Shown: positions 941-56,834, counted from the first letter of the stretch. The stretch is DNA of 64,000 nt from Glaucostegus cemiculus (GCA_976551045.1 CDPCPM010000114.1:22134001-22198000), one strand, 5' to 3'. Notes: generated from the sequence alone by a model not told the origin. A program made the numbers and translations.

Positions 941-2150
941 CCATAAGAGTCATAGAGCAATACACAACAGATACAGGCCCTTCAATCTAAAGTGTCCATG
1001 CCAACCACGGTGCCCACCCAGCTAGTCCCAATTTCCTGCGTTCAGCCCATATCACTCTAAACCCCGCCCCTTCATTTACCTATCCAAGGACTTCTTAAAT
1101 GATACCATTGTATCTGCTTCAACCACTTCCTCTGGCAGCCCATTCCATATGCTCACCACTCTCTGTGTGGAAAAAGTTGCCCCTCCGATCCTTTTTAACC
1201 CTTTCCCCTCTCACTCTAAACCTATGTCCCCTAGTTTTAGACTCCCCTACCTTGGGGAAAAGACTGTTATCATCCACCTTCTCTACGCCTCTCATAATTT
1301 TAAACACTTCTATAGGGTTGCCCCTCATTCTCCTAAGTTCCAAGGAATAAAGACCTAGCCTGGCCAATCTTTCCCTATAACTCAGGCCCTCTGATCCTGG
1401 CAACATCCTCGTAAATCTTCTCTGCACTCCTTCCAATTTAACCACACCTTTCCTATAATGGGGTGACCAAAACTGTACACAGTTCTCCAAGTGTGGCCTC
1501 ACCAACAACTTATACAACTGCAACATAATGTCCCAATGCTTATACTCAGTGCCCTGACTGATGAAGGCCAGCATGCTAAACACTTTTTTCACCACCATGT
1601 CTACCTGTGACGCCACTTTCAATGAACTATGTACTTGTACTCCTAAGTCCCTCTGTTCCATAACACTCCCTAGTGCCCTACCACTCATAGTATAAGTCCT
1701 ACACTGGTCTGACTTTCCAAAATGCATCACCTCACACTTATCTGTATTGAAATCCATTTGCCACTCCTCGGCCCACTTCCCTAATTGATCAAGATCCCGC
1801 TGTAATCTACGATAACCTTCTTCACTATCAACACCTCCTAATTTAGAGTCATCCGCAAACTTACTGATCATGCCCTGTGCATTTACATCCAAATCATTTA
1901 TATAAATAACAAATAACAAGGGTCCTAACACCGACCCCTGGGGCACACCACTAGTCACCAACATCCATTCCGAGAAGCAACCTTCAACCACTACCCTCTG
2001 TTTCCTACCTCCGAGCCAATCTTGAATCCACCTAACAAGTTCTCCCTGGATTCCATGGGACCTAACCTTCCAGACCAGCCTACCATGTGGGACCTTGTCG
2101 AAGGCCTTGCTAAAGTTCAGACAACATCCAATGCCCTACCCTCATTTATC
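941..2150 (-). mobile_element. CR1-type LINE, 5'-truncated (RT C-terminal part plus 3' UTR)
   Basis: ORF 1119-1991 with SGVPQGSVLGPLLF, KFADD, LVRPHLE motifs. Confidence 0.93.
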
Positions 2151-17272: not shown

Positions 17273-18391
17273 GTAATGAAGATGGCGGCGCACCTGGTTG
17301 CAGCGGCCTCTCCCAGGTCTGTAGTCCTTGTCTTTTTTTGTTAGTCTTCTAGTGTTTTTCTGTGTTTTTTTCTTGTGTGTTCTTTGTTCTTGATGTTTGT
17401 GTGCCGTTTTATGGAGTCGTTGTCGGTACTGTCGGCTCCGACGGCTCGTCAGAGCTCATCGGAGGCGGCAGCGTCTTGAAGGCCCGGGAGCCTCGCGGTG
17501 GCGTCGGGATGCGGGCGGTGAGGGGGCTGCTTGGGCCGGAGGTGGTCGGCCTGCGGGGCTCGAGGCTGTCGGACTGCGGGGCCGGAATTCGGGGCCGGAG
17601 GCCGTCGGACTGCGGGGCCGGAATTCGGGGCCGGAGGCCGTCGGACTGCGGGGCCGGAATTCGGGGCCGGAGGCCGTCGGACTGCGGGGCCGGAATTCGG
17701 GGCCGGAGGCCGTCGGACTGCGGGGCCGGAATTCGGGGCCGGAGGCCGTCGGACTGCGGGGCCGGAATTCGGGGCCGGAGGCCGTCGGACTGCGGGGCCG
17801 GAATTCGGGGCCGGAGGCCGTCGGACTGCGGCGCCGGAATTCGGGGCCGGAGGCCGTCGGACTGCGTGGTCGGAATTCGGGGCCGGAGGCCGTCGGACTG
17901 CGGAGCTGGAATTCGGGGCCGGAGGTCGTCGGACTGCGGAGTCGGAGGCGAAGGAGCCGGGGGTCGTCGGCCTGCGGGGCCGGAGGTGGTCGGACTGTCG
18001 GACTGTGGCCGGAGGTTGTTGATGGTCTGTGGGCCCTGAGGTTGTAGGACTGCGGGGGTTGGAGGTGGTCGTCGGTGCGGGGTGAGGCAGGGGGGCTGTT
18101 AATGTTTTGATGTTTTTGTCCAGGTGTCCTTTATTGTCTTTGATGTCTTTTGCACATGTATACGTGTAAGTGAAAATCGATAAATTGATCCTGAATTTAA
18201 GTTCAATCCCCTTAGTTTTTAAGGTGTAATGATCTGTACTATGCATTCTGCCAAGTGTGTATGTGTCTCTCTGTTGGTTGTTATGTTATTTTTGTATGGG
18301 ACGAGCACCTGAGGAGGACGGTATATCGCTCCTCTGCATACTTTGTATGTATGTGGTTGTGACGATAAAACTGATTCTGATTCTGATTCTG
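17273..18391 (+). mobile_element. Non-autonomous retroposon with a Rex1/Babar-type LINE 3' tail and internal GC-rich VNTR
   Basis: 8-bp TSD AACTCTAA (17265-17272 and 18392-18399); (ATTCTG)n tail; last ~135 bp match the LINE 3' UTR at ~62418-62548. Confidence 0.85.
17571..17940. repeat. 36-bp GC-rich minisatellite, about 10 copies
   Basis: Unit GGACTGCGGGGCCGGAATTCGGGGCCGGAGGCCGTC; first seven copies identical, later ones diverge. Confidence 0.97.
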
Positions 18392-18778: not shown

Positions 18779-20234
18779 CTGTAACAGAAGAGGGATTGCC
18801 CAGAATTAATCAACTTTCTCAACAAAGTAGTAAACATTCAATGGCACTTCTCACTAACAAATCATTTTCACACACATTGCACTGGCAAAGTTAAATACTG
18901 CCCACCTTAAAATACATACACACAGATCTACCATTTAATTAGACTGTTGATAATCTGCAGGGAAAAAGGCCCTTCTGCCCATTGAGGCCATGCAGACGAT
19001 CAACCATCCATTTGCACTTATTCTACAGTAATCCCATTTTTAATTCTTCCCACATTCCCATCAACTTTCCCTAGATTCTACCACTCACCTACATACTAGG
19101 AGCCAATTTAGTGGCCAAATAACCAACCAAACCCATGTCGTTAGGGCGTGGGAGGAAACCAGAGCATCTGTGGGGGTGGGGGTCAGGGATGGTAACCCAT
19201 GTGATTACTAAGTAGACAGGCAAACTCCACACAACTCGATTGGCTGTGCCACCCAAAACACCTTAACTATACTTAACCTCATTCTGCAACCCTTAATCCC
19301 GAACAAAAATCAGTTACGAAATTTTCAAAAGGCCTTCCCCTGAAGTTATTTTTGGAATAGAGTTTCAGATTTCCTCTTTATTCTGTGTGAACTGCTTCTT
19401 GAAATTATATCTCAACCACTTCTAAGCGTGCATCCTCCTGCTCTGGACTACGCTACAAGTGGAAATAGTTTCCTGCTACACACCTGTAAATGTGTTTATC
19501 CCCAATCTATTGTACCTGATCATTCTGATTTGCTGTCTTTGCCAGGGCAACATACTCTAACAGAAAGCAACACTGAACATGTTTCAGACCTTTTGCCACT
19601 GCAAGCAGCAACTCCTTTTTTTTAAAAAACACAAACCCAAACCTGTTTATTTTTACAAACTGTGATTGGCAAAGGGTTACAAACATCTTGGCTGCTGCAT
19701 GACTTATGATAGTTTTGTTTTATGCGAAAAACAAAACTATTGCTTTATGAGAAAAGAACCATCATCTTCTGTAATGCACGTGGCATTATTCTACTCAGAG
19801 TGAATAGTGCCCCTTGATGCTGTAAAGTAAACAAACCCTTGTTTGGTCAGGGAAATATCAATCGGAAAGCACTCCTCATGTTGGATCCAGGCAAGAAGCA
19901 CATGGTAATCTTTTAATTAAGTTTGTTTTGCCTACAAAAAAAGTAACATCTGTACAAGATCAGACACCATTTTTCATATGTTCATTAGGATGTGTCATGA
20001 TAAATCTGATCTTTTTACTTACAGAATTAGCAGCTGTAATTGTGCACAAAATGAACATTTAATTCATATAGAGTACAATTCAAGTGAAAAATAGTCCACT
20101 GATGAGCTTGTGCGGTCAACTTGCTCAAGCAGCCTCACCTAATTATTCTGTGTTCAAGAATTTTAGTATTTCCTTATGTCTTATCATCTGTGTCAGATAA
20201 GTCATGGAGTAGAAACTACATGCTACATTCACCT

Positions 20235-20345
20235 TTATTATGTTCAGCATTTTAAGTCCAATAAAGGTAAATGTCGCATGCAGTTGCTAATCCACGACTT
20301 ATGCGACACAGATGATAATTGGACTTAAAATGCTGAACATAATAA
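20235..20345. repeat. 111-bp hairpin with perfect 28-bp inverted arms (MITE-like)
   Basis: 20235-20262 is the exact reverse complement of 20318-20345; inner stem TGTCGCAT/ATGCGACA. Confidence 0.9.
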
Positions 20346-20469
20346 GTTAACAAAAGTTCTGTGCAACAAATGTCAATTACAATACGACTACACTGAGGAA
20401 ATTTTTTAATGTCCAAATGTGACAAACATGGATATACTATTATCCGGCTCAAGAGAGGGAGCAAGTTTA

Positions 20470-21600
20470 TCAGAGGGGTGGGGGGGGCACAGGGGGGCCG
20501 GGGAGGGTGGCTGGGGGAGATGCGGGGGGCAGGTGGGGGGGAGGGGAGACACAGGTAGGAGGACGGTGACAGGACGGGGATTTGGGAGCATTGGAGGGGG
20601 AATGGAGGGGTGGAGTAGGAGTGGGGAGTGAGTGGATGGGGTAGGGTTGGGGGTGAGGTAGGAGTGTGGGGATGAGGGGTATGGTAGTGCTAGAGGTGAT
20701 GGGGTGGGAATGGGTGGGGGCCTGGTACTGGGGGGAGAGGAGAGGAGGAGAGAAGGGAGGGGTCCGTTGGGGGAGACAGTGGGGGAGGTTTGGTAGAGAG
20801 ATTGCGGGTGAGGGGGGTGAATGGGGGGGAGAGGATTGGGGGCAGGTGAGGGGATGGTGTAGGGGGTGGGTGAGATCAGGNNNNNNNNNNNNNNNNNNNN
20901 NNNNNNNNNNNNNNNNNNNNNNNNNNNNNNNNNNNNNNNNNNNNNNNNNNNNNNNNNNNNNNNNNNNNNNNNNNNNNNNNNNNNNNNNNNNNNNNNNNNN
21001 NNNNNNNNNNNNNNNNNNNNNNNNNNNNNNNNNNNNNNNNNNNNNNNNNNNNNNNNNNNNNNNNNNNNNNNNNNNNNNNNNNNNNNNNNNNNNNNNNNNN
21101 NNNNNNNNNNNNNNNNNNNNNNNNNNNNNNNNNNNNNNNNNNNNNNNNNNNNNNNNNNNNNNNNNNNNNNNNNNNNNNNNNNNNNNNNNNNNNNNNNNNN
21201 NNNNNNNNNNNNNNNNNNNNNNNNNNNNNNNNNNNNNNNNNNNNNNNNNNNNNNNNNNNNNNNNNNNNNNNNNNNNNNNNNNNNNNNNNNNNNNNNNNNN
21301 NNNNNNNNNNNNNNNNNNNNNNNNNNNNNNNNNNNNNNNNNNNNNNNNNNNNNNNNNNNNNNNNNNNNNNNNTGGTGGAAGAGGTGGGGAGAGGGAATGG
21401 GAGAGGTGGAGAGAGGGAATGGGAGAGGGAATGGGAGAGGTGGGGAGAGGGAATGGGAGAGGTGGGGAGAGGGAATGGGAGAGGTGGGGAGAGGGAATGG
21501 GAGAGGTGGGGAGAGGGAATGGGAGAGGTGGGGAGAGGGAATGGGAGAGGTGGGGAGAGGGAATGGGAGAGGTGGGGAGAGGGAATGGGAGAGGGGATGG
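20470..21600 (+). repeat. G-rich low-complexity tract and 22-bp tandem repeat flanking an N gap (20881-21372)
   Basis: Unit GGGAGAGGGAATGGGAGAGGTG, about 10 copies right of the gap; dense G-runs left of it. Confidence 0.92.
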
Positions 21601-21941
21601 GACAGGCTGCCGAGGGAGGGGTTAAGTGCGGCGGCCACGGTGCGCCTGCTGTCGCGCCCCCACCTCGCCCTGGCCCCCGCTCCACGGGCGCCGCCAGCCC
21701 CGGGCCGGGCCGGGCCGAGCCTCCGGCCCAGGCGCCTGCGGCTCCGGGCGTCGGCCGCCAAACCCGATCATGGCGGGAGGCGCCGGGCTCCTGCGCTGCG
21801 GCCTGTCCGGGGCCGCCGTCCACGCTCCTGGGTCACGGCGGCCGGCGACGGCGCCCAGCCCGCCGCAGGCCTCAGGCCTCGCCGGCCCACCCAACGTCAT
21901 AGGCCGCCGGCCCAACTGCAGCCTCACCCGCGGCTGCTCAC

Positions 21942-22010
21942 CTCCACATCGCGGCCCTTGTTCTTGAAGCTTTTGATGCGGTGATTCTCAGCGGCGCTGC
22001 TGTCGGCCAT
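21942..22010 (-). CDS. KPNA3: KPNA3 coding exon 1 (MADSSAAENHRIKSFKNKGRDVE)
   Basis: ATG at 22010-22008 in a CpG island, 69 bp, gtgag donor. ENHRIKSFKNKGRDVE matches the recalled KPNA3 N-terminus. Confidence 0.95.
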
Positions 22011-22059
22011 CGCGCTGCTCAGCTCCGCCCGCCACCCAGGAAACGAGAGAATGTTCCAC

Positions 22060-22311
22060 AAGCGGAGGTACCGGCGGCTGCCAGCAGGCGGCGGCAACCC
22101 GCCCTCGGCTTACCGGCAGCCGCCAGCAGAGGGCGATAACCTCGGGCTTGAAATGCCCGTCCCTGCCACCAGAGGGCGGTAGGAGGCGGGACGCCGGGGG
22201 CGAGACCAGGTCTCGGCAGAGCGGCGGGCGACCAATGGAAGCTGTAATACCGCCTCTCGCCACCGGGGGGTGGGGTTGTGGAGCAATTGTGCTGTGACCA
22301 GCAGGGAGCGA
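22060..22311 (+). promoter_or_regulatory. Array of five CTCF-like motifs, same orientation
   Basis: Cores at 22081 (CCAGCAGGCGGCG), 22123 (CCAGCAGAGGGCG), 22166 (CCACCAGAGGGCG), 22260 (CCACCGGGGGGTG) and 22298 (CCAGCAGGGAGCG). Confidence 0.65.
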
Positions 22312-22676
22312 CTGGAACACCGGGCAACCACAACAAAAGCGGCTGCAATGCCGGGAGCTGCAGGGGTGGAGAATCTGTGGTACCCGCAATTACAGAAGCT
22401 TTTGTCACCTGATGAACGATCCTCACTCAAGTCGCCTTGGGAACAAATAGAAGCTACTCCATGCAGTGAATAACCAAAACAAACATATAAGCATGGTTAT
22501 TGAATTCACTGAAAGCATGTTTCCGGGAAGGCTGCAAGGTTCCTGAAGAGGAGGAGCAGTTCGGTGCTAACCCTGGCGTGTTCCGTCTTGTGGTGATCTG
22601 AGAAGGGGGCGAGTGTGTCGGCGGTGGGATGGGGGGAGTTGGGCAGTGCGTGAAGGCAGTGCATAGAGGCGCAGGG

Positions 22677-22850
22677 ATGGGCGAGGAGGAGCCGCTGCTG
22701 AGCCCGGCAGCTCTGTACTCGCTGCTGCTGTGCTCCGCTCAGGTGCCCCTGGCTTGCGCGCTGTCGTTGTACTTCGGGCAGCGATGTTCTCCACTGGACC
22801 GGGCGCTCCTGGCCTGGCTCTGCTATGACTGCATCGTGCACTTTACCCTG
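22677..22850 (+). CDS. EBPL: EBP-like protein (EXPERA family), coding exon 1 (MGEEEPLL...WLCYDCIVHFTL)
   Basis: 174 bp ending at a gtaagt donor; WLCYDxxVHFxL motif. An in-frame upstream ATG at 22629 is an alternative start. Confidence 0.9.
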
Positions 22851-23314
22851 GTAAGTTGTTCTGCCTCAGTGTAAGGCGGCTAAAGTGCCCTTTTTTTGCC
22901 TCGCATCCCTTAAGGTAATTTGCTGTTTGGGGGATATTTTCCCGCGTGTAAGAAAGATGGGTTAGAAACAAGGCACATGAAGAATCCTCACCACTGCATC
23001 TATGTAGATGGGAATAGGTTTCATTTTACAAAGCGGGTTTTGTAACCTCGGAATTTCGAGAGAAGTGAAGCACATCTGAATACACGTACTGTTATAACGC
23101 AGCAGATGTGACCAGGACCCGCAATATATAGTCTGTTTTAATGATCTGAAGGAGAAACATCAACTCGGAGACACGGCTCTTCCAAAAATAAGGTACACTC
23201 AGAGCTATGTAGTGCCAAGTTCCCTCGGTATTTCACTGTCACACTCCTGTGCTCAAGTCACTAGAGTGGGACCATCCCACAAGCGGCTGACTTTCAGTGA
23301 AAAGGCTAAATTTG

Positions 23315-23835
23315 TAAATTGATTTATTATTGTCACATGTACCAAGGTACAGTGAAAAAATTTGTTTTGCATGTCATCCATAGAGATCATTTCATCACAT
23401 CAGTACATCAAGGTAGTACAAGGGAAAACAATAACAGAATAAAGTGTTATGGTTACAGAGAAAGTGTGGTGCAGGTAGGCAAGTTCATAACGAGGTAGAT
23501 TGTGAGGTCAAGAGTCCATTCTTACATTACTGGAGGACTGTTCAATGGTCTTATAACAGTGGGATAGTAGCTGTCTTTGAACCTGGTGGTACGTGCTTTC
23601 AGGCTTTTGTATCTTCTAGGAAGGGGTGGGGGGGGGAGAGAGAATGTCTCGGGTGGGTGGGGTCTTTGATTATGTTGGCTGCTTCACCAAGGCAGCAAGA
23701 AGTGTAGGCAGATTCCATGGAGGGATGGCTGTTTTCCGTGATGTGCTGAGCTGTGTCCACAACTCTGCAGTTTCTTACAGTCTAGGGCAGAGCAGCTGCC
23801 GTACCAAGCATGATGCATCTGGATAGGATGCTTTC
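23315..23835 (-). mobile_element. Rex1/Babar-type LINE 3' fragment
   Basis: AWYGSCSALDCKKLQ motif on the minus strand; 3' UTR resembles 5690-5815. Confidence 0.75.
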
Positions 23836-24836
23836 TAGGCAGACACTGAAGCTGAACTCTGTATAAGACATCTTTGCTCCTGTGCTCAATCACTATTTGA
23901 AATAATACTCCGCCTTTCTGTTTTCCTAGTAAAGGGGGGAACTTCACTTTTGTCCATGTTAGGTTTCATCTTCCATGGATTTGCCCACTCATCCAACTTG
24001 TCTAAGTCACTGTGAGTCTCTGCATCCTCCTCATAACTTTAAATCCCAAGCATTTTCATTTCATCAGCAAATTTAGACATACAGGCTGGCTCCAGGTTAC
24101 AAAGACCCAACTGATGGACACCCGCACATATGAACAAGCTCCTGTAATATTACTCAAAGGTCCATTGCTCCCTCATCCATTGATGTACATTCTGAGTGGC
24201 TGGGCTCCTGCAGTACTCAACTAGTTGACATTAGCTAGTCCAAGAAGACCCATTTATTCCTGCTCTTTGTTTTATATCTGTCAACTGCTCTTCAGTCCAT
24301 GCCAGTATTCTAACCCTAATGGCATACAAGGATGTCAGTAAGCAAATTGAAGCTGACAAGCAACATCACTGAAATATGATAGTGCAATGACATTAATGAA
24401 ATGATATTCATGGTGAATAAACTTACTTAAAGAGGGCTATCAAATCTACATATGCTAATTATAGTTAAACATATTTAGTACTTTTTTACATTTATGTGTT
24501 TACAGCAAATTAATTTAGTTCTCTTTCTTGAATGTGGGTATAGTAATGTTTAGTATATTTGAACAGGAAACTGTGGAATGAGTTGTTTTTTGTAGTTGAG
24601 CAAGATGTAAATATTACAACATATTAAAGGTACTTTTCCCTGTTATCCATTGAGGTTATTATCAGTTAATTAATTATGATGCTGTCTCCAGGAACTAGTG
24701 AAAGATAATGTTTAAGATTGGACCTAATCTTGCTCACCTGCTTCTTGAGAAGATCAGAGTGACATGAAATGTATTGGAATGTCTTAACTCACTTTGCAAC
24801 AAGTAAAATTAATGTTACTTTTGTATTGTATTGCAG

Positions 24837-33905: not shown

Positions 33906-33964
33906 GTAAGTTATAGAGTCATACAGCACAGAAACAGGCCCTTTGGCCCAGCGGGTCCATGCCT

Positions 33965-35507
33965 TCTTCAAAAGGGCATCAATCATACTGGTGCCCAAGA
34001 AGAGCAGGGTGAGCTGCCCCAATGACTATCACCCGGTAGCACTCACATCTACTGTGATGAACTGCTTTGAGAGGTTGGTCATTGCTAGAATTAACTCCTG
34101 CCTGAGTAAGGAACGGGACCCACTGCAATTTGCCCACCTCCACAACAGGTCTGCAGCAGATGCAATCTCCCTGGCTCTTCCCTCGGCTTTCTGGCACCTA
34201 GACAACAGCAAAACATGTGTCAGGCTGCTGTTCATTGATTACAGCTCGGTGTTCAACACCATTGTCTGCTCAGTACTAATCAACAATCTTCAAAACCTGG
34301 GCCTCTCTACCTCCCTCTGTAACTGGATCCTTGACTTTCTTCACAAGATAATGGAGCAGAAGCAGGCCACTCGGCCCATCGAGTCTGCTCCAAAGGGAAG
34401 GGAGGGTGGGGAAATAAGAGGGAAAAAGAGGATGAAAAAGAATGAGAAAAAAAACTATTCTCCATATCCCTTGACACCTCGACCAATTAGATATCTATCT
34501 ATTTCCTTCTTGAATATCCTCTTTTCAGGAGACCACAGTGAGGACTGGTAAATAACATCTCCTCTTCTCTGACAATTAACACAGATGCACCTCAAGGATG
34601 CGTGCTTAGCCCACTGCTCTACTCTCTCTACACTCATTACTGTGTGGCTGGGCACAGCTCAAGCACCATCTATAAATTCGCCAATGACACGACTGTTGTT
34701 GGCAGAATCTCAGATGGCGACAGGAGTGAGATAGATTGGCTGGTTGAGTGGTATCACAACAACAACCTCACACTCAATGTCAGCAAGACCAAGGAATTGA
34801 TTGTGGACTTCAGGAAGGGGAAGTTGGGAGAACACACACCAGTCCTCATTGAGGGGTCAGCGGTGGAAAGGCTGAGCAGCTTCAAGTTCCTGGGCGTCAA
34901 CATCTCAGAGGATCTCTCCTGGGCCCAAAATGTTGATGCAGTTACAAAGAAGGTACGCCAATGGCTCTGCTCCATTAGGAGCTTGAGGACACTTGGTACG
35001 TTACCAAAGACTCTTGTAAATTTCTATAGATGTACAGTGGAGACTATCCTAACTGGTTGCATCACTGCCTGGTATGGAGGCTCCAATGTGCAGGACTGAA
35101 AGAAACTGAAGAGGGTTATAGACTCAGCCAGCTCCATCTTGGGCACAACCTCTTCCACCCCCCCCCCCCCCCCCAAACTATCAAGGACATCTTCAAGACG
35201 CAGTGCCTCAAGAAGGCAGCATCCATCATTAAGAACCCTCACCATCCGGGACATACCCTCTTCTCATTACCACCATCGGGAGGAGGTACAGGAGCTTGAA
35301 GACTCGCACTCAATGTTTCAGGAACAGTTTTATCCCCCTCCACCATCAGATTTCTGAATGGTCCATTAACTCTACCTTGTTATTCCTCTTTTGCAGTATT
35401 TTATTTATTTTTTGTAACTTATAGTAATTTTTATGCATTGAACTGTACTACTGCCGCAAAACAACAAATTTCATGATGTATGTTAGTGATAATAAATCTG
35501 ATTCTGA
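33965..35507 (+). mobile_element. Rex1/Babar-type LINE, 5'-truncated
   Basis: NDYHPVALTS, LLFIDYSSVFNTI, LSPLLYSLYT, KFANDT, KTKELIVDFR motifs; ATTCTG tail. Confidence 0.9.
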
Positions 35508-46842: not shown

Positions 46843-49065
46843 ATAGTACAGTACATACAGTACAATACAGGCCCTACAGCCCACCATGTTGTGCCGTCCT
46901 TCAAACCACACCTCACTATCTAACCCTTACCTCCCACATATCCCTCTATCCCACATTCCTCCATTTGTCTATCCAACAATCTCTTGAACCTGTCAAACGT
47001 ATCTGCCTCCACCATCACCCCAGGCAGCACATTCCATGCACCAACCACTGTCTGGGTGAAAAACCTCCCTCTGACATCTCCCCTGAACTTCCCACCCATA
47101 ACCTTAAAGCCATGCCCTCTTGTCTTGAGCATTGGTGCCTTGAGAAAGAGCCGCTGGCTGCCCATCTATTCCTTTCAATATTTTATACACCTCTATCATG
47201 TCTCCTCTCATCCTCCTCCTCTCCAATGAGTAAAGCCCTAGCACTTTAAGCCTCTCATCATATTCCATACTCTAATCCAGGCAGCATCCTGGTAAATCTC
47301 CTCTGTACCCTCTCCAATGCCTCTATATCCTTCCTATAATGAGGCGACCAGAACTGAACGCAGTACTCCAAGTGTGGTCTAACCAGAGTTTTGTAGAGCT
47401 GCATCATTACTTCACGGCTCTTAAACTCGATCCCACAACTTATGAAAGCTAACATCCCATAGGCTTTCTTAAATGCCCTATCCACCTGTGAGGCAACTTT
47501 CAGTGAACTGTGGATATGAACCCCCAGATCCCTCTGCTCCTCTACACTGCCAAGTACCTTGCCATTTACCTCGTACTCTGCCCTGGAGTTTGTCCTTCCA
47601 AAGTGTACCACCTCGCACTTCTCCGGATTGAACTCCATCTGCCACTTATCTGCCCAGCTGTGCATCCTATCAATATCTCTCTGTAACCTCCGACAGCCCT
47701 CCACACTATCCACCACACCGCCAATCTTAGTGTTATCTGCAAACTTACTAACGCAGCCTTCCACCCCTTCATCTAAGTCATCTATAAATAAAACAAAAAG
47801 TAGAGGTCCCAGAACCGATCCCTGCAGAACACCACTAGTCACAGCCCTCCAATCCGAGGTCACTCCCTCCACCACAACCTTCTGCTTTCTACAGGCAAGC
47901 CAATTCCTAATCCACATGGCCAAGCTTCCCTGGACCCCTTGACCTCTGACCTTCTGAAGAAGCCTACCATGAGGAACCTTAACAAACACTTTACTAAAAT
48001 CCATGTAGACCACATCCACTGCACTACCCTCATCAATCTTCCTTGTCACCTCCTCAAAGAATTCTGTCTGGCTTCTGAGGCAAGATCTTCCCTTCACAGA
48101 GCCATGCTGGCTGTCCCTAATCAGTCCATGATTCTCTAGGTGTTCATAGATCCTATCCCTTAGAATCCTTCCTAACAGCTTATCCACCACAGACGTGAGA
48201 CTCACCGGTCTGTAATTCCCTGGACTATCCCTACTACCTTTTTTGAGAAAGGGGACAACATTCGCCACCCTTTAATCCTCCGGTACCATCCCTGTGGACA
48301 ACGAGGACTCAAAGATCCTTAGCAGCGGTTCAACAATCTCCTCCCTCGCCTCTCAAAGCAGCCTGGGGAATATTCCATCAGGCCCCAGAGACTTATCCAT
48401 CTTGATATTATTTAACAACTTCAACACATTCTCTCTCTTGATGTCTACATACTCAAAAACATTACCCTTACCAGCGCTCTCTACTGCGTCATCAAGACCC
48501 CTCTCCTTGGTGAATACCGAAGAGAGGTATTCACTGAGAACTTCCCCCACTTCTACCACCTCCAGGCACATCCTCCCACCTTTGTCTTTAATCGGATCTA
48601 CCCTTACCCTAGCCATCCTTCTGCCCTTCACGTACGTGAAAAAAGCCTTGGGATTCTCCTTAACCCTACTAGTCAATGCCTTTTCATTTCCCCTTCTAGC
48701 TCTCCTCAGCCCTTTCCTAAGCTCCTTCCTTGCTACGCTATATTCCTCGCGAGCCCTGTCTGAGTCTTGTTGCTTACACCTTATGAATGGTGCCTTCTTC
48801 TTCCTAACCAGTCGTTCCACCTCTCTCGTCACCCACAGTTCCTTTATCCTGCCACTCCTTATCTGCCTCACCAGGACATATTTATCCCTAACAACCTGTA
48901 AAAGATCCCTGAACATCGCCCACATCTCCATAGTACATTTCCCTTCAAAAAGGACATCCCAATTTACACTCCCAAGTTCTCTCCTTATAGCCTCATAATT
49001 TGCTCTTCCCCAATTAAGTATCTTCCTGTCCTCTCTGCACCTATCCCTGTCCATGACAATTTTGA
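46843..49065 (-). mobile_element. CR1-type LINE ORF2 fragment, relatively young
   Basis: ORFs 48353-49096 and 47258-48268 (GNYRPVSLTS, QGSVLGP, KFADN, LVRPHLEYC) followed by the 3' UTR. Confidence 0.95.
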
Positions 49066-49164: not shown

Positions 49165-51225
49165 CACAAGCAGAAGTAGGCCATTCAGTCCATTAAGTCT
49201 GCTCCAAAGGGAAGGAAATGTGGGGTGGTGGGGGGAGACTGATTCTAATCCCAAATTCTGGCTTTATCTCTATATCCCTTGATAGCTTGACTAATTAGAT
49301 AACTGTCTATCTCCTCCTTAAACACCTCCAATGAACTGGCCTCCACTGCTTTCTGTGGCAAGGAATTCCATAAATTCACCACCTTCTGGCTAAAGAAATT
49401 TCTCCTCATCTCTGTTTTAAACCTGTACCCTCTAATTCTAAGTTTGAGCCCTCTGGTCCTGGACTCCCCACCAAGGGAAACAGCTTGGCCACATCTACTC
49501 TGTCCAGTCCTTTCAATATTTTAAATGTTTCTATGAGGTCCCCTCTCATTCTTCTGTACTCCAGTGAGTACAGTCCAAGTGCCGACAGACACTCATCATA
49601 CACAAGCCCTTTCATCCCAGGAATCATCCTCATGAATCTCTTCTGAACCCTCTCCAACATCAACCCATCCTTCCTAAGATATGGGGCCCAAAACTGTACA
49701 TAGTATTCCAAATGAGGCCTCACCAGTGCCCCATATAGCCTCATCAACACTTCCTTGCTTTTATACATTATACCCCTCAAAATAAATGCCAACATAGCAT
49801 TCGCTTTCTTTGCCACCGATCCGACCTGGTGGTTAACCTTTAGGTTATCCTGTACGAGTACCCCCTAGTCCCTTTGTACTTCTGTACTTTAAATTTCTTC
49901 TCCTTCTAGATAATAGTCTGCCTGTTTATGTTTCCGAAGTGTACAACTGAACATTTCTCAACATTAAATCTCATCTGCCATTTCCTCCCCCATTCCCCTA
50001 GACTATCTAAGTCTCTCTGCAACTTTCCTGTCTCTTCAATACTCTCCACTCCTCCACCTATCTTAGTGTCATCCACAAACTTGGCCACAAAACCATTTAC
50101 TCCATCATCTAAATCGTTAATGTACAGAGTAAAAAGAAGGGGCCCCAACACCAACCTGTGCGGAACACCACAAGTAACCAGCAGCCAAGCAGAACAGGAT
50201 CCTTTTATTCCCACCCTCTGCTTTCTGCCAACCAACCAACGCTCCACCCATTCTGTTATCCTACCTGTTGTTCCATGATCTCTCATCTTATTAATTAGTC
50301 TTTTGTGAGGCACCTTGTCGAATGCCTTCTGAAAATCTAAATACACAACATCTATCACCTCTCCCTTATCTACCCTACCTGAGATTTCTTCAAAAAACTC
50401 CAATAAGTTGGTCAGGCAGGATCTTCCCTTCACGAAACCATGTTGGCTTGGACCTATCTTGCCTTGCACCTCGAGGTATTCCATAACCTCGTCCTTGAGG
50501 ATTGATTCTAATAACTTTCCCACCACTGACGTAAGGCTGATAGGTCTGTAATTTCCTTTATGCTGCCTCCCACCTTTCTTATACAGTGGAACTACATTTG
50601 TGACCCTCCAGTCCTCTGGAACCATGCCGGAGTCTATTGATTCCTGAAAAATGATCACCAATGCCTCCACTATCTCTAAAGCCACTTCCTTCAGTACCCA
50701 GGGATGTACCTCATCCGGTCCTGGAGACTTATCAGTCTTTAGTCAATTTAGCTTCCCCAACACCTTCTCTCTAGTAATCTTAACTGAACTCAGTTCCATC
50801 CCTTGAGACCCTTGATTAACTGGTATATTGCTGATGTCTTCCACCGTGAAGACCGATGCAAAATACTGAGTTAGCATCTCCACCATCTCTTTATCATCTA
50901 TTATAATCTCTCCCACACCATCATCTATTGGTCCTGTATCAACCCCCGTCTCTCTTTTACTCCTTATATATTTAAAAAAACTCTTAGTATCCTTTTGAGT
51001 ATTTTCTGCCAACTTCTTTTCATAATTCCTCTTTTCTTTCCTAATGACCTTGTTAGCATTTGTAGGTTTTTAAAAGTTTCCCAGTCTTTTGTTTTCCCAC
51101 TACTTTTTGTTTCCTTGTATGCCCTCCCTTTTGCTCTTATTTTAGCCTTCGCCTCTCTCATCCACATTTGTGTCTTATTTCCATTTAAAACTACCTTTTT
51201 TCTTAGAACATATCCATCCTGCATT
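49165..51225 (-). mobile_element. Second CR1-type LINE (different subfamily) directly adjacent
   Basis: Frameshifted ORFs 50743-51012, 49906-50685 and 49406-49816 with RT motifs (YLDFQKAFDKVPH). Confidence 0.95.
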
Positions 51226-51457: not shown

Positions 51458-51658
<201 letters not shown>

Positions 51659-52104
51659 TGATGAGGGCGCCTTCCGAAAAGCCAGTGTTTAATGTCTACC
51701 CATAACTATGCTTGAGATAGTGGTTGTCAGCTATTACCTTAACCTTCCATAATGCTGATGAATACAGAATTCCAAGATTTTAATCCAGTAATGATAATGA
51801 AAAAGCAGTATGTTTCCCAGTCCAGATGAGTCATTGGTGGGGAGCTTATGAGTGGTGCTGTTCCCATCAGCCTGTTAGTTGTCCATTTAGCTGGTAGAAA
51901 TTGTCAGAAGAAACCTTGGTAAGTTGCTATAGAACTTCTTGTAGATGTTACCGCTGCAATTATAGAATGCCAGTGGTCAAGGGAGTGAATGCTTTTAGGT
52001 GATGCCTGGGATATCAATCAAGTGGGCTGGGCTATCCTTGATGGTGTAGTGCTTGTGCAAGTTGTAGTTATCCAAGGAAACGGAAAATAGTAGTTTCATA
52101 CAAT

Positions 52105-52335
52105 AGGGTGGCATGTAGTATAGCGGTTAGCGTAACACCATTATAGAGCCAGCGCTCGGGTTTCAATTGACACCACTGCCTGTAAAGAGTTTGTACGTTC
52201 TCCGCGTGACTGCATGGGTTTCCTCTGGGTGCTCCGGTTTCCTCCCACATTTCTGGGTTAGTAGGTTAACATGGGTGTAATTGGGTGGCACGGGCTTGTT
52301 GGGCCGGAAGGGCTTGTTACCGTGCTGTCTAAACA
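52105..52335 (+). mobile_element. tRNA-derived V-SINE
   Basis: A/B-box-like head, V-domain core GGGTTTCCTCTGGGTGCTCCGGTTTCCTCCCACA. Confidence 0.8.
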
Positions 52336-53801
52336 AAGTTTAAAGAAGGACTTGCTGCAGCATTTCATAGAGCAATTTAGAGTCAACCAAGTTGCTGTGG
52401 GCTTAGAGTTATATAGGAGACAGACTGGGGAAGGACAATGGATTTTCTCAACAATGTTAGTGAACCAGGTAGCTTTTTCAGAGAATAGATTACTTTCCAG
52501 TACTACTGATGTGAAGGGGCACTGTTGTGTCATCTCTGAGATCTTGATTCAAATACTCCACCAGAATGAACCAAAGGCTGTGCTGGTGCTTTGAAAGCAG
52601 TGTTGAATTTCATCATCGAAATCCTATTCCATCAAGAGGTCGCTCCCAAGATGTGGGATAAGGCTTATGTTTTTCAGGGTCTCACCGCAAATCTTTATTG
52701 TCAGAGGGCCTTGTGGTACATTTGGTAGAGGGCCTTTCCGTTGTCGATGTTGTATTTAAGGCTCATGTTAAACTTCAATGGCTAAGTTGAGCAAGCAGAT
52801 CGTTTGCATGTCCAACACCAGACTTCCAAAACAAACACTCTAGAGCCAGTCCCTGGGTTATGTAAGGGTTCCATTCCAGAGAAATGTCTGTAAGCCATTT
52901 TCTCTGTAAGTCAGAAACATCCATTTTCTATAGTAACCTATAGTGTATTGCTCTACATACTCTTGCTATAATTCTTCATTTCATTTGTTACGAAGTACCT
53001 TACTATAGGCAAATATCCCTTTAAGATGAGACATTGTGTGTGTGTGCAACGTATTACGTCAACAGAAGATAAGACTAACGTGATGACGTCATTACAAGAG
53101 AGAAAAAAGATAGGAGAGAGAGACAGACAGACAGAGAGAAAGAAGAAGGGGAGACGGCAGCCTGTTTTGTTTCTGTCGATGGATGAAGGACAGTAACTGT
53201 GTTTGTCACTAAAATCCGTGGATGGATTTCTGGAGTAGTCCAGTGGAGTTCACTTTGTCGGTAACCTGTAGAAGGACACAGGTGTTTGCGTGAACAACCA
53301 CATTTTGGATGCTCTTCAGAGTGGCAGATACTGTGGAACAAAGTGGCGGAATTCACTTTGCTGCTAACCTGTAGAAGAACACAGGTATTTACATGGACAG
53401 TCACGATCAAGGAGTTTTCAGGGTGAGAAAGTCACTATCGAGTAAGCCCTGAAGTGTCGTTTGAGTTTCGAGTGGAACATTCGGATTTCGTGATTCCTCT
53501 CTAATCTCTCTCTATATCTATGTTTTGTCTTCGGTGGACAGTGCTTGTGAAGAAGCCTTTATTCGTGTTTCATCTTACAGCTTATTGAACTGAACTTTAA
53601 GAACTAATTCCTGAACTTTGAGTTTAGGAACTTGCCGCACACACATGACGAGTAGTTTTGGGGTTATAGTTTAAGATTCTAACATCTTATTGTGTACTAA
53701 TATACTAACTTTTTATTCTTATTTTACGTATTATCGGATGTAGTTTTAACACTGAAGTATGAATTGGTGTGCTTCTTTTGTTGCTGGTTTCGTAACAAAA
53801 T

Positions 53802-53819
53802 TGGGGGCTCGTCCGGGAT
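53802..53819 (+). other. tRNA-Pro primer binding site
   Basis: TGGGGGCTCGTCCGGGAT, the canonical 18-nt tRNA-Pro PBS, 4 nt after the LTR-terminal CA. Confidence 0.92.
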
Positions 53820-53977
53820 CTTCCCAAGATTAATGCGTGTCGTTCTGGGATCCAGTCCAAAGCTTGATTAGGGTGGCTTGCAGTCAAACTTAAGACTGGT
53901 GCTGGAGGTCTGAGTTTGGACATTGGGGTTGGTCCAATAAATTTTCTTAATTGGCGTGTGTGTGGAAACCAGTAGCA

Positions 53978-54532
53978 ATGGAGGTGTTTATGAAAAAACC
54001 CACCCCAAATGGATTGCAGAGAATGAAGAAGTCTGAATTATTAATTCTTGCTGCAGAGCTAAAACTTACGACAGTAACACAATCTATGAAGAATGCAGAT
54101 ATCCAGAGAATAATAGCTGGTCATTATGTGAAGATGCAAGTGTTTGAAGAGGGAGTAGTAAAACAATTTCCTGGCAGTGAACAAATGATTTCTGATGCCC
54201 AAATTCAGTTAGCAAAGATAGAGGCTGAACGAGAGCAAAGGAGACTGGAATCTGAACGAGAGCAAAGGAGACTGGAATCTGAACGAGAGCAAAGGAGACT
54301 AGAATCTGAACGAGAGCAAAGGAAGCTAGAATCTGAACGAGAGCAAAGGAAGCTAGAATCTGAACGAGAGCAAATGAAGCTAGAATCTGAAGCAGAACAA
54401 AGAAAGGTAGATGCTGAGTTAGAAAGGGACCGATTGAAATTTGAAGCTCAGGCAGAGGAAAAGAGATTGGAATTGAGGAGGATGGAGCTGGAAAATAAAG
54501 AGAGGAATCACGAAATCCGAATGTTCCACTAG
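53978..54532 (+). CDS. Truncated gag-like ORF with coiled-coil 9-aa repeats (ESEREQRRL), stopping inside the inverted LTR arm
   Basis: Starts 158 bp after the PBS; N-terminal KKSELLILA motif and Glu/Arg coiled coil resemble Gmr1-like Gypsy Gag (recalled). 27-bp tandem unit at ~54221-54410. Confidence 0.7.
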   Translation: MEVFMKKPTPNGLQRMKKSELLILAAELKLTTVTQSMKNADIQRIIAGHYVKMQVFEEGVVKQFPGSEQMISDAQIQLAKIEAEREQRRLESEREQRRLESEREQRRLESEREQRKLESEREQRKLESEREQMKLESEAEQRKVDAELERDRLKFEAQAEEKRLELRRMELENKERNHEIRMFH

Positions 54533-55204
54533 AAACTCAAACGACACTTCAGGGCTTACTCGATAGTGACTTTCTCGCCCTGAAAACTCCTTGATCGTGA
54601 CTGTCCATGCAAATACCTGTGTTCTTCTACAGGTTAGCAGCAAAGTGAATTCCGTCACTTTGTTCCACAGTATCTGCCACTCTGAAGAGCATCCAAAATG
54701 TGGTTGTTCACGCAAACACCTGTGTCCTTCTACAGGTTACCGACAAAGTGAACTCCACTGGACTACTCCAGAAATCCATCCACGGATTTTAGTGACAAAC
54801 ACAGTTACTGTCCTTCATCCATCGTCAGAAACAAAACAGGCTGCCGTCTCTCCTTCTTCTTTCTCTCCGCCTGTCTGTCTGTCCGTCTCTCCTATCTTTT
54901 TTTCTCTCTTGTAATGACCTCATCACGTTAGTCTTATCTTCTGTTGACGTAATACGTTGCACACACACACACAATGTCCCATCTTAAAGGGATATTTGCC
55001 TATAGTAAGGTACTTCGTAACACATTGAACAATCACCCTAACACTACCCATAATTTAACTAATGGTATATATAGCATATCTAATCATTAATTAGAAATAT
55101 TTTATGATTATTATCTTGAAAAATACTTTAAAAATGCCTGGGAAAATTTATGTAAAGTTAGATTTCTGTAAGTCGGGTCATTTGCAACTCAGGGAACCCC
55201 TGTG

Positions 55205-55330
55205 TTCTGATGCTGGTCATGGGAAGAGATTACCAGTCAGAAGAGGAAAAGCTTCAAAGATGTACTCCAGACACAACGCATCTTGGGAATCTCTGGCCCA
55301 TGACCACTCAAAGTGGAGAAGGGTCAGTTC
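55205..55330 (+). mobile_element. RTE-type LINE 3' remnant
   Basis: Degenerate QKRKSFKDVL and SWESLAHDHSKWRR motifs. Confidence 0.55.
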
Positions 55331-56667
55331 TCTATTGGAGCCACATTCAACATAAACAGTTTCTGTACTTTAAAAAAAGATTTTATGTCATTTAAACTTC
55401 CATTCTCCCAGAAATAACTATGTGTACTGCCTTTTGCTACTTTGAATAATAAATCAGTGCACAACCACAATATTCTGAAGCTTTAGGTAGGGCCTTAGAT
55501 GGTATGTATTTTTTTTTTGGTGGAAGTGATGGAGAAGTGATGTTGAGTTGAGGGAGAAACTTAAGAGCTAAATATACATTTAACAAAGTGTCTTGGATTC
55601 TGCATTGCATCATTTCTCTGAACAGAACAAACAGTGCAGTTCATTGCTGTACCAGCCCTGGATCTTGTTCTTATAAAATGTTGGGAAGGAGCCTTTTGCT
55701 GACTATTAACACATACGGTTTATTGGGAATGACATCTGGATCTGTAGCCAGTTAATTTCCTTTAAAGTTCAAGGTGGAATCTTGCAATTTTGAGTCATCA
55801 AACTATGGAACCATTCAAAGTCAGCACTGTGTATAAAATGGCCCACTGGAGGATTTGATTTAGTTAATCTGTAACTTACTGTTGAAAACTGATTCATTAA
55901 TGTGGTCTGTTGGTTCCAATCCTTGTGTCAATGCATGGGCACAGTCACTTCATCTCACAGTCACTTTGTCCTAGAGTCGTATGGTTTCATAGCTTTTTTT
56001 CTCTTGTGTCCAAGCACAAAGGGAGTCATTTTGTTTTAATGTTGGATCCATAAGGTGATGTCAGGAATGGAAAATGGGATTTTTCAGTCTGTGAAAAATT
56101 CTATTCACTGTACAGGTTGGCTCCATGAATCTATCCATTATTGTTTATAGTACTTCACCATTTCCTTCAGATATTCCTTTCTGCCCCCACCTAATAAAAG
56201 TTTAAAAAAAAATACAATTGCACAATTTTTATTTTGCTACCAACATTGTGAGTACTTAGGGAGAAGGAATGGCTGTATAGCACCAATTATTTAAAAGCAA
56301 AATGCAGCAGATGCTGGAAATCTAAAATAAAGTCAAAGATGCTGGAAGTATTAGTAGATCAGACAGCATCTGATGAAAGGTCATTGACTTGAACCTGTTT
56401 CTCTCTCTCCACATAATGCTACCTGACCTGATGAGTGATCTCTGTTTTATCTTGGGACCAATCATTGATCCATATGGGATTACACATGCTCTCTTAAACT
56501 CAAGCAGACAAAAGACCCATCTGTCTCCAAAAGCTGACTTAGCTAATTGTCATGCGGATTATAAAAGATCTGGATTTTCAGACAGGTTGAGGATCTGTAG
56601 CTATCATCTATGGGTAGTTTTTGGAGCATGTCAGTCACTTTGTCATAAACCCTGTTACTGTTTGCAG

Positions 56668-56834
56668 ATGGAGAGACCTATTCCTGGGGCCTCAACAGCA
56701 GCTGCCAACTGGGAAATGGAACAACTGGTCCTAGCTCATTGCCTTTCCTCGTTTCCAGCATGTTCTATAATAAGAAAGTAGTGGAAGTAGCTTGTGGCTC
56801 CTGTCATTCTATGATTCTCACAACAGAGGGAGAG
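56668..56834 (+). CDS. RCBTB1: RCBTB1 coding exon 3 (DGETYSWGLNSSCQLGNGTT...VEVACGSCHSMILTTEGE)
   Basis: 167 bp with AG/GT, phase-compatible; RCC1 repeat. Confidence 0.9.

Follow-up and report, generated by a model that had tools for sequence, protein, structure and literature searches.

A Gypsy-derived element with two left long terminal repeat ends in inverted orientation in an intron of Glaucostegus cemiculus

Anatomy of the element

A 64,000-nucleotide stretch of the Glaucostegus cemiculus genome (GCA_976551045.1 CDPCPM010000114.1:22134001-22198000, hereafter the window) contains a 2,037-bp element (52986-55022), with the tetranucleotide CATT directly outside each end. The sequence supports its description as a Gypsy derivative that carries two left long terminal repeat (LTR) ends in inverted orientation. 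From 5' to 3', the order is CATT, an 812-bp LTR, a 4-nucleotide (nt) spacer, an 18-nt primer-binding site (PBS), a leader, gag, an inverted part of the LTR, and CATT. The element lies on the sense strand within the 51633-56667 intron of a gene with RCC1 repeats. The features are listed below in window coordinates, with the copies of the putative target-site duplication (TSD) and the host exons included.

52982-52985, unstranded: left TSD copy, CATT (4 bp), by sequence inspection
52986-53797, plus strand: full 812-bp LTR, TG...CA at its ends, whose outermost 9 bp form a perfect inverted repeat
52986-53502, plus strand: left arm of the inverted repeat, LTR nt 1-517
53245-53404, plus strand: two diverged 57-nt copies within the LTR, 103 nt between, 81-85% alike, carried by both arms
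53802-53819, plus strand: 18-nt PBS, starting 4 nt after the LTR
53978-54532, plus strand: gag-like frame of 184 codons, from the ATG at 53978 to the stop at 54530-54532, the last codons coming from the inverted arm
54228-54416, plus strand: 27-nt tandem repeat inside gag, encoding a 9-residue coiled-coil unit, about 7 copies
54499-54523, unstranded: junction zone, a hexamer plus a putative longer, imperfect gag/LTR homology (extension suggested by the proteins of related elements)
54499-55022, minus strand: right arm, a 524-bp inverted copy of LTR nt 1-517, TG end outward
55023-55026, unstranded: right TSD copy, CATT (4 bp), by sequence inspection
51482-51632, plus strand: upstream host exon, RCC1 repeat
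51633-56667, plus strand: host intron, 5,035 bp, GT...AG, phase kept across, splicing predicted from the sequence
56668-56834, plus strand: downstream host exon, RCC1 repeat

A first-pass annotation of the window, made from the sequence alone, had described an 812-bp LTR at 52986-53797, a switch at 54499 to the reverse complement of the same LTR, and CATT in direct orientation on both flanks. All three observations are borne out. The LTR starts with TGTTACGAA and ends with TTCGTAACA, which form the perfect 9-bp inverted repeat (52986-52994 vs. 53789-53797), and blastn aligns 54499-55022 with the reverse complement of 52986-53502 at 96.6% identity over 527 columns. The right arm is indeed a copy of LTR nt 1-517, as had been proposed, but it is 524 bp long here because of insertions. 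Similarly, the gag portion of about 520 bp agrees with the 521 nt that we count from the ATG to the junction, but the frame does not end there and continues to its stop in the inverted arm. The hexamer AGAGAG at 54499-54504 is mirrored at 53497-53502, and LTR nt 1-517 would appear to be wholly U3. The sense strand of the LTR contains neither AATAAA nor ATTAAA, and the antisense strand contains two copies of AATAAA (53558 and 53712). We take the PBS to correspond to tRNA-Pro. The spacer that precedes it (53798-53801) has four bases, more than the one to three that are usual between an LTR and its PBS.

Self-comparison reveals no direct 3' LTR, the second LTR copy being partial and inverted, and none of the purine runs listed for the element precedes a sense LTR start, as a polypurine tract (PPT) would. 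There is no pol in the element or elsewhere in the window. Neither the LTR end, the PBS, nor gag recurs in the window, which also has no Rfam family or tRNA gene.

Family of the gag fragment

Over residues 1-92, the frame is 60% identical (E 6e-25) to a 445-aa protein of Pristis pectinata that bears a SCAN domain and a zinc knuckle, and three further Pristis pectinata proteins match the same residues. At 60-64% identity over the gag N-terminus, these sawfish proteins are the closest relatives. SCAN is present in 6 of the 12 gag relatives scanned. In published descriptions, a SCAN-bearing gag together with the pol order protease-integrase-reverse transcriptase-RNase H (PR-IN-RT-RH) defines the Gmr1-like Gypsy elements, which are abundant in fish (10.1101/2025.03.03.638093; PMC4131045). 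Because the gag relatives bear this marker, the element is, judged by sequence similarity, derived from a Gmr1-like, SCAN-bearing Ty3/Gypsy family. It has no SCAN of its own, as the gag fragment stops before the capsid/SCAN region, and Pfam finds no family in the element's own frame.

Homolog searches yielded few matches beyond these. There was one match among 385 longer candidates; with the whole frame as query, there were two coiled-coil look-alikes among 8,000 candidates, and with residues 1-92, three sawfish proteins among 22 candidates. A search of a representative library gave 31 matches. The protein fused at the junction was absent from a collection of 15 billion proteins in an exact look-up of its start forms (0 of 4), which says little, given that no member of the exact family turned up there either (best identity 60-64%). 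The fused tail was carried by neither P0002 nor any of the 13 relatives inspected among the 31 from the representative library. A truncated, 184-aa gag could, from the reading frame, be made from the element. The sawfish gag proteins P0002, P0005, P0006, and P0036 carry annotations that make them host proteins (calponin-homology, involucrin-like, or uncharacterized), and three of the four are short gag fragments (170-242 aa).

What the target-site duplication shows

Two 4-mers drawn at random from the 4 kb of flanking sequence agree in 0.56% of cases (CATT itself makes up 0.9% of the 4-mers in the flanks). Because a chance match is this rare, the CATT pair is probably, on the strength of the flanking sequence, a real duplication made by an integrase. 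It is 4 bp only, with no extension to 5 bp, and the target context is TCATTG. No paralogous empty site was seen in the window, where neither 1.5-kb flank matches elsewhere up to the insertion point.

The first-pass annotation had gone further and described the element as apparently integrated as a single unit. Of that reading, the probable integrase-made duplication of 4 bp stands, but integration as one unit does not follow from it. The nine bases that adjoin the right CATT would read alike in a U5 end and in an inverted U3 end, and because these ends are identical, the TSD cannot tell integration of a molecule with two U3 ends from a later rearrangement or from an inverted dimer. A later rearrangement at the 9-bp repeat would preserve the TSD of a normal insertion. 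A second insertion into the same target in the opposite orientation, followed by loss of the center, would preserve it likewise, and inverted tandems of LTR elements with the target motif in the junction are described in Drosophila (PMC5932611).

The junction at 54499

The switch had been attributed to the AGAGAG microhomology, by a change of template during reverse transcription. The hexamer is at most a putative microhomology, and 6-mers common to the gag/leader and the reversed LTR are frequent, starting at 130 of 674 positions. The template switch itself is a possible mechanism, and its single-template version predicts identical arms, whereas the arms differ (see below).

Past the hexamer, in the inverted arm, the gag frame reads NHEIRM, and the closest relatives read QHELQM or QHDLQM there. 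Allowing the best offset within a 40-residue zone, and using as background the 127,966 hexapeptides of the window, the score obtained with P0002 is reached by 57 background hexapeptides, that with P0006 by 54, and that with P0008 by 296; for P0031, the number is 2,213. Among 1,590 LTR-derived hexapeptides, three reach the score for P0002, the junction site itself being counted. The tblastn alignment of P0008 extends to 54523. Gag sequence on its own side of the joint lacks homology, with 8 of 30 bases matching in register and 6-13 of 30 over 11 offsets. A multiple alignment set the repeat region in the wrong place and was left out of the junction analysis.

From these comparisons, we infer that gag and the reversed LTR are alike for up to ~25 nt (54499-54523), with the LTR sequence retained. 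Retention of the LTR sequence at the joint suits a strand bearing the LTR that primed on the gag plus strand. The homology may thus exceed six bases and may be a hotspot in the family. Later conversion between the arms could instead account for the likeness.

Divergence of the arms

Ten substitutions separate the arms over 517 aligned columns (1.9%), and relative to the left arm the right arm has three insertions, of 2, 1, and 4 nt. If the element arose by a switch on a single template, the arms were identical at birth; as they differ, either two templates or an old insertion is required. Fifteen CpGs are intact in both arms. Only one of the 10 substitutions is a plain CpG transition, and one more transition sits within a two-base change in a microsatellite. 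The observed/expected CpG ratio is 0.74-0.75 in the arms; it is 0.29 for the window as a whole, and three old fragments of long interspersed nuclear elements (LINEs), which served as a decay control, have values of 0.28-0.31. With CpG rate ratios of 3, 5, 10, and 15, the probability of observing no more than one CpG transition in 10 is 0.42, 0.19, 0.03, and 0.006, respectively. Judged by this pattern of substitutions, two sibling templates are weakly favored over decay in place.

Origin of the element

The structure is real, and it is most likely a single dead element. For its origin, our tentative preference is for a single event in a Gmr1-like Gypsy element, whose product, unable to replicate, arose at the complementary DNA (cDNA) stage from two sibling templates and was integrated by the family's integrase. 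The particle would have held two slightly different RNAs of the same family. Plus-strand DNA would have started at the U3 end and stalled near LTR nt 520, and the stalled strand could then have paired with the gag plus strand at the imperfect inverted homology of up to ~25 nt. Synthesis across the joint would have produced a duplex of 2 kb flanked on both sides by a TG...CA U3 end, the position of either end being set by the point at which the plus strand started, and integrase would have inserted this duplex at CATT, in the intron of the RCC1-repeat gene. The exact stop at LTR nt 1 would need no extra step if the template ends there. Support for this account comes from the exact TG end on both sides together with CATT on both flanks, from the arm differences with their intact CpGs, and from the residues past the hexamer that resemble those of the closest gag relatives. 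The Ty1 integrase is reported to insert foreign DNA that has only TG...CA ends, leaving a normal TSD (PMC2939329), and such tolerance makes two left ends a plausible integrase substrate.

Several points weigh against the cDNA-stage origin. No result tells it apart from an inverted dimer or from a rearrangement that took place later at the 9-bp repeat, and the TSD shows that integrase acted at the site, not that it acted on the 2-kb unit. The extended homology at the junction is seen in three of the seven relatives tested, is weak in one, and is absent in three. The three positive relatives are close kin (two are named as sawfish), and hence not independent, and the tblastn alignment of P0002 ends at 54370. 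In addition, the length of six residues was picked after the match had been seen, and a window of eight residues gives about 0.4%. The CpG argument is weak, as it depends on an assumed rate ratio for the host. The differences between the arms are not significantly clustered (P 0.20 and 0.11), and an old, single-template event is a possible source of them. Finally, a literature search that had most subscription papers outside its reach found no description of an integrated cDNA with two U3 ends, no direct precedent for two-donor integration, and no two-left-end, TSD-flanked LTR element. The accessible parts of PMC7240061, PMC3562510, and PMC12853362 settle neither the use of two U3 ends nor the identity of the tRNA.

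A later rearrangement is an unlikely explanation, albeit one to be taken seriously. An ordinary LTR-gag-pol-LTR insertion at CATT would have been altered by host replication or break repair, in which one strand made a reverse copy of LTR nt 1-517 with the element's own LTR or an ectopic one as template. This copy would have been joined to gag at the junction homology and to the 9-bp terminal repeat, so that pol and the 3' LTR were lost and the TSD was kept. The TSD would survive because the U5 end equals the inverted U3 end over its last nine bases, and an ectopic sibling template would account for the differences between the arms, which the element's own LTR as template would not, since it predicts identical arms at birth. 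Host polymerases are reported to add viral sequence, taken from either strand and joined at short homologies, in aberrant proviruses of human immunodeficiency virus (PMC5041404), and an endogenous retrovirus (ERV) of the guppy with one inverted LTR has been put down, tentatively, to recombination (PMC5210030). However, two switches are required, one of them exactly at the terminal repeat, and copying of the element's own 5' LTR could just as well have proceeded into host DNA on the left, whereas no such extension is present. We regard as unlikely, too, a collapsed inverted dimer, in which two sibling elements lay tail-to-tail at one target, either because the second inserted into the TSD of the first or because two cDNAs each gave a U3 end to one integration, and the center of the palindrome was then lost by asymmetric deletion at the junction homology. 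Such a dimer accounts together for the outer TSD copies, the two U3 ends, and the nonidentical arms; inverted tandems with the target motif in the junction are known in Drosophila (PMC5932611), and long palindromes in mice often rearrange and lose their central symmetry (PMC8701086). Yet insertion at the same site is rare without strong target specificity, and the deletions reported for the mouse palindromes are mostly small (PMC8701086), whereas here most of two elements must go, with only 1,513 bp retained on the left side and 524 bp on the right.

The remaining explanations have less to recommend them. That two independent insertions occurred nearby in opposite orientation, with the host DNA between them deleted and CATT matching by chance or through a shared target preference, is improbable given the 0.56% chance identity of 4-mers in the flanks, although two templates would fit the arm differences and it is established that closely spaced inverted repeats promote deletion. 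Very improbable is a self-propagating, nonautonomous two-U3 family moved in trans by the parent's enzymes or a Ginger-type transposase. The ends fit the TGTNR of both Gypsy and Ginger, and the 4-bp TSD is as in Ginger (PMC2836005), but the element lacks a direct R, a PPT ahead of a sense U3, and an internal complementary region of the DIRS type. Retro-copied arms would be expected to be homogenized, or at least not to retain two variants, and neither the fused protein, in any of its four start forms, nor a relative with the fused tail turned up, in collections whose coverage of the host is evidently poor. Least credible of all is an assembly or library artifact, either a fold-back chimera or a mis-join. 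Long inverted repeats are difficult to sequence. However, a fold-back chimera would have identical arms and a mirrored flank, whereas these arms differ mainly by substitutions, the right arm stops exactly at the LTR terminus and is followed by CATT and unique DNA, and the flanking exons are consecutive and in phase. Autointegration was considered and rejected, as the inner junction lies inside the LTR (nt 517) and not at an LTR terminus.

Comparison with known systems

The element resembles Gmr1-like Gypsy elements in its TG...CA LTR, its PBS, and the related N-terminus of its gag, and differs from them in lacking a direct 3' LTR, PPT, capsid/SCAN, and pol, and in having an inverted partial LTR as its right end. 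By the features that define LTR retrotransposons generally, the nonautonomous TRIM and LARD included, it has the TG...CA LTR and the PBS, but neither the pair of direct LTRs nor a PPT before a 3' LTR. DIRS elements have inverted terminal repeats, an internal complementary region, and a tyrosine recombinase, and leave no TSD. Membership of this group was rejected, given the Gypsy gag, the TSD-like flanks, and a self-comparison in which the terminus has no internal match beyond the 9-bp LTR repeat.

With Ginger1 and Ginger2, the element shares inverted repeats, TGTNR termini (TGTTA here), and a probable 4-bp TSD; the termini and the TSD are also those of Gypsy and so are not specific. It has no integrase or transposase, its arms are 517 bp compared with terminal inverted repeats (TIRs) of 40-270 bp in Ginger, and its CATT target is neither CCGG/CCGT nor RTATAY (PMC2836005). 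Membership of Ginger was therefore rejected, on the grounds that only a gag fragment lies between the arms, that the target is another one, and that the arms are 517 bp long. The source that describes Ginger1 hypothesizes that its TIRs came from two LTRs in opposite orientation and describes as unclear how an LTR element would become a DNA transposon (PMC2836005). The route suggested there differs from ours in relying on a further insertion, placed upstream of the original 3' LTR, and not on two left ends.

In maize, both termini of Mu killer come from one end of MuDR (PMC3440606). The likeness to our element is that both termini derive from the left end of the parent, are inverted, and lie within or next to host transcription, with a hairpin RNA proposed. 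Mu killer differs in its DNA-transposon origin and in duplicating coding sequence, whereas the stem of our element is LTR sequence and any role in silencing is putative; the same source disputes read-through as the silencing transcript of Mu killer (PMC3440606). Elements with inverted LTRs are already on record, for example, the guppy ERV (PMC5210030). Rover in Drosophila, EVADE in Arabidopsis, and the inverted 5' LTR of guppy PrERV-1 are described as LTRs of the same family opposed at one locus, with hairpin potential, but in these cases whole elements or LTRs are kept; here, the center is gone, one LTR is partial, and a single TSD brackets the unit. The autointegration inversion circles of Ty1 and SISYPHUS are also particle-stage products with inverted parts, but their inner junctions are reported as LTR termini joined by integrase, and ours is at LTR nt 517 (PMC7197481).

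Replication capacity and significance

LTR reverse transcription requires a direct R at both ends of the RNA and a PPT before a sense U3. As the element has no direct R, no PPT-U3, and no pol, it cannot be copied by the LTR route, and its self-propagation by reverse transcription is, from its anatomy, unlikely. The suggestion that it could represent a self-propagating class is accordingly unsupported. If the junction were found to recur elsewhere, this would more simply mean repeated, independent switching at the built-in gag/LTR homology.

The likeliest activity is passive. In the predicted fold of the whole element, 510 of 517 arm bases are paired, and host read-through could possibly yield an RNA with an LTR stem of ~510 bp. 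By analogy, the stem is a possible source of small RNA, or an editing substrate, directed at its own family. LTR hairpins of tandem or nested insertions have been discussed as silencing triggers for EVADE (PMC11624286). Its position in a transcribed intron makes the element a candidate animal counterpart of Mu killer as a source of hairpin RNA.

Provided that it entered the genome in its present form, the element is natural evidence that a Gypsy integrase inserted a two-left-end cDNA in a vertebrate germ line, and as one integrated unit it would be the kind of intermediate called for by the hypothesis on the origin of Ginger1 (PMC2836005). The locus does show TIR-like ends built from opposed LTRs in nature, though without an integrase. 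If it was produced by a single later rearrangement, it is a curiosity of little general weight. LTR finders that require direct repeats would overlook such elements.

It is also conceivable, if distinctly doubtful, that the built-in inverted LTR/gag homology makes the family repeatedly release two-left-end derivatives that are integrated with a normal TSD. Recurrent switching of this kind would give a recurrent class of TIR-shaped elements made from LTRs, and hairpin sources directed at the family. A switch further downstream would then leave inverted ends around gag-PR-IN without RT, which is the anatomy of the Ginger type; an integrase but no RT would be enclosed because the Gmr1-like order puts integrase before RT. 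This would be a concrete route for the published but unobserved transition from LTRs to TIRs.

Host gene and genomic context

The two exons around the element are consecutive and in phase, and more exons of the RCC1-repeat gene lie at about 58560 and about 60920 on the plus strand. The host gene is presumably RCBTB1/2-like. Elsewhere in the window, there are old LINE-type reverse transcriptase fragments (Pfam RVT_1) at 1119-2135 (minus), 33910-35099 (plus), 47258-48271 (minus), and 49906-50742 (minus), and a 36-nt tandem repeat at 17472-18018 has several open frames on both strands. Overlapping inverted repeats at 20181-20345 (59 and 45 nt, 84-86% complementary, with loops of 20-21 nt) resemble a hairpin or a miniature inverted-repeat transposable element. 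G-rich 22-nt repeats at 21355-21650 are followed by the GC-richest 2 kb of the window (0.51), and the region 20400-24000 is possibly a promoter.

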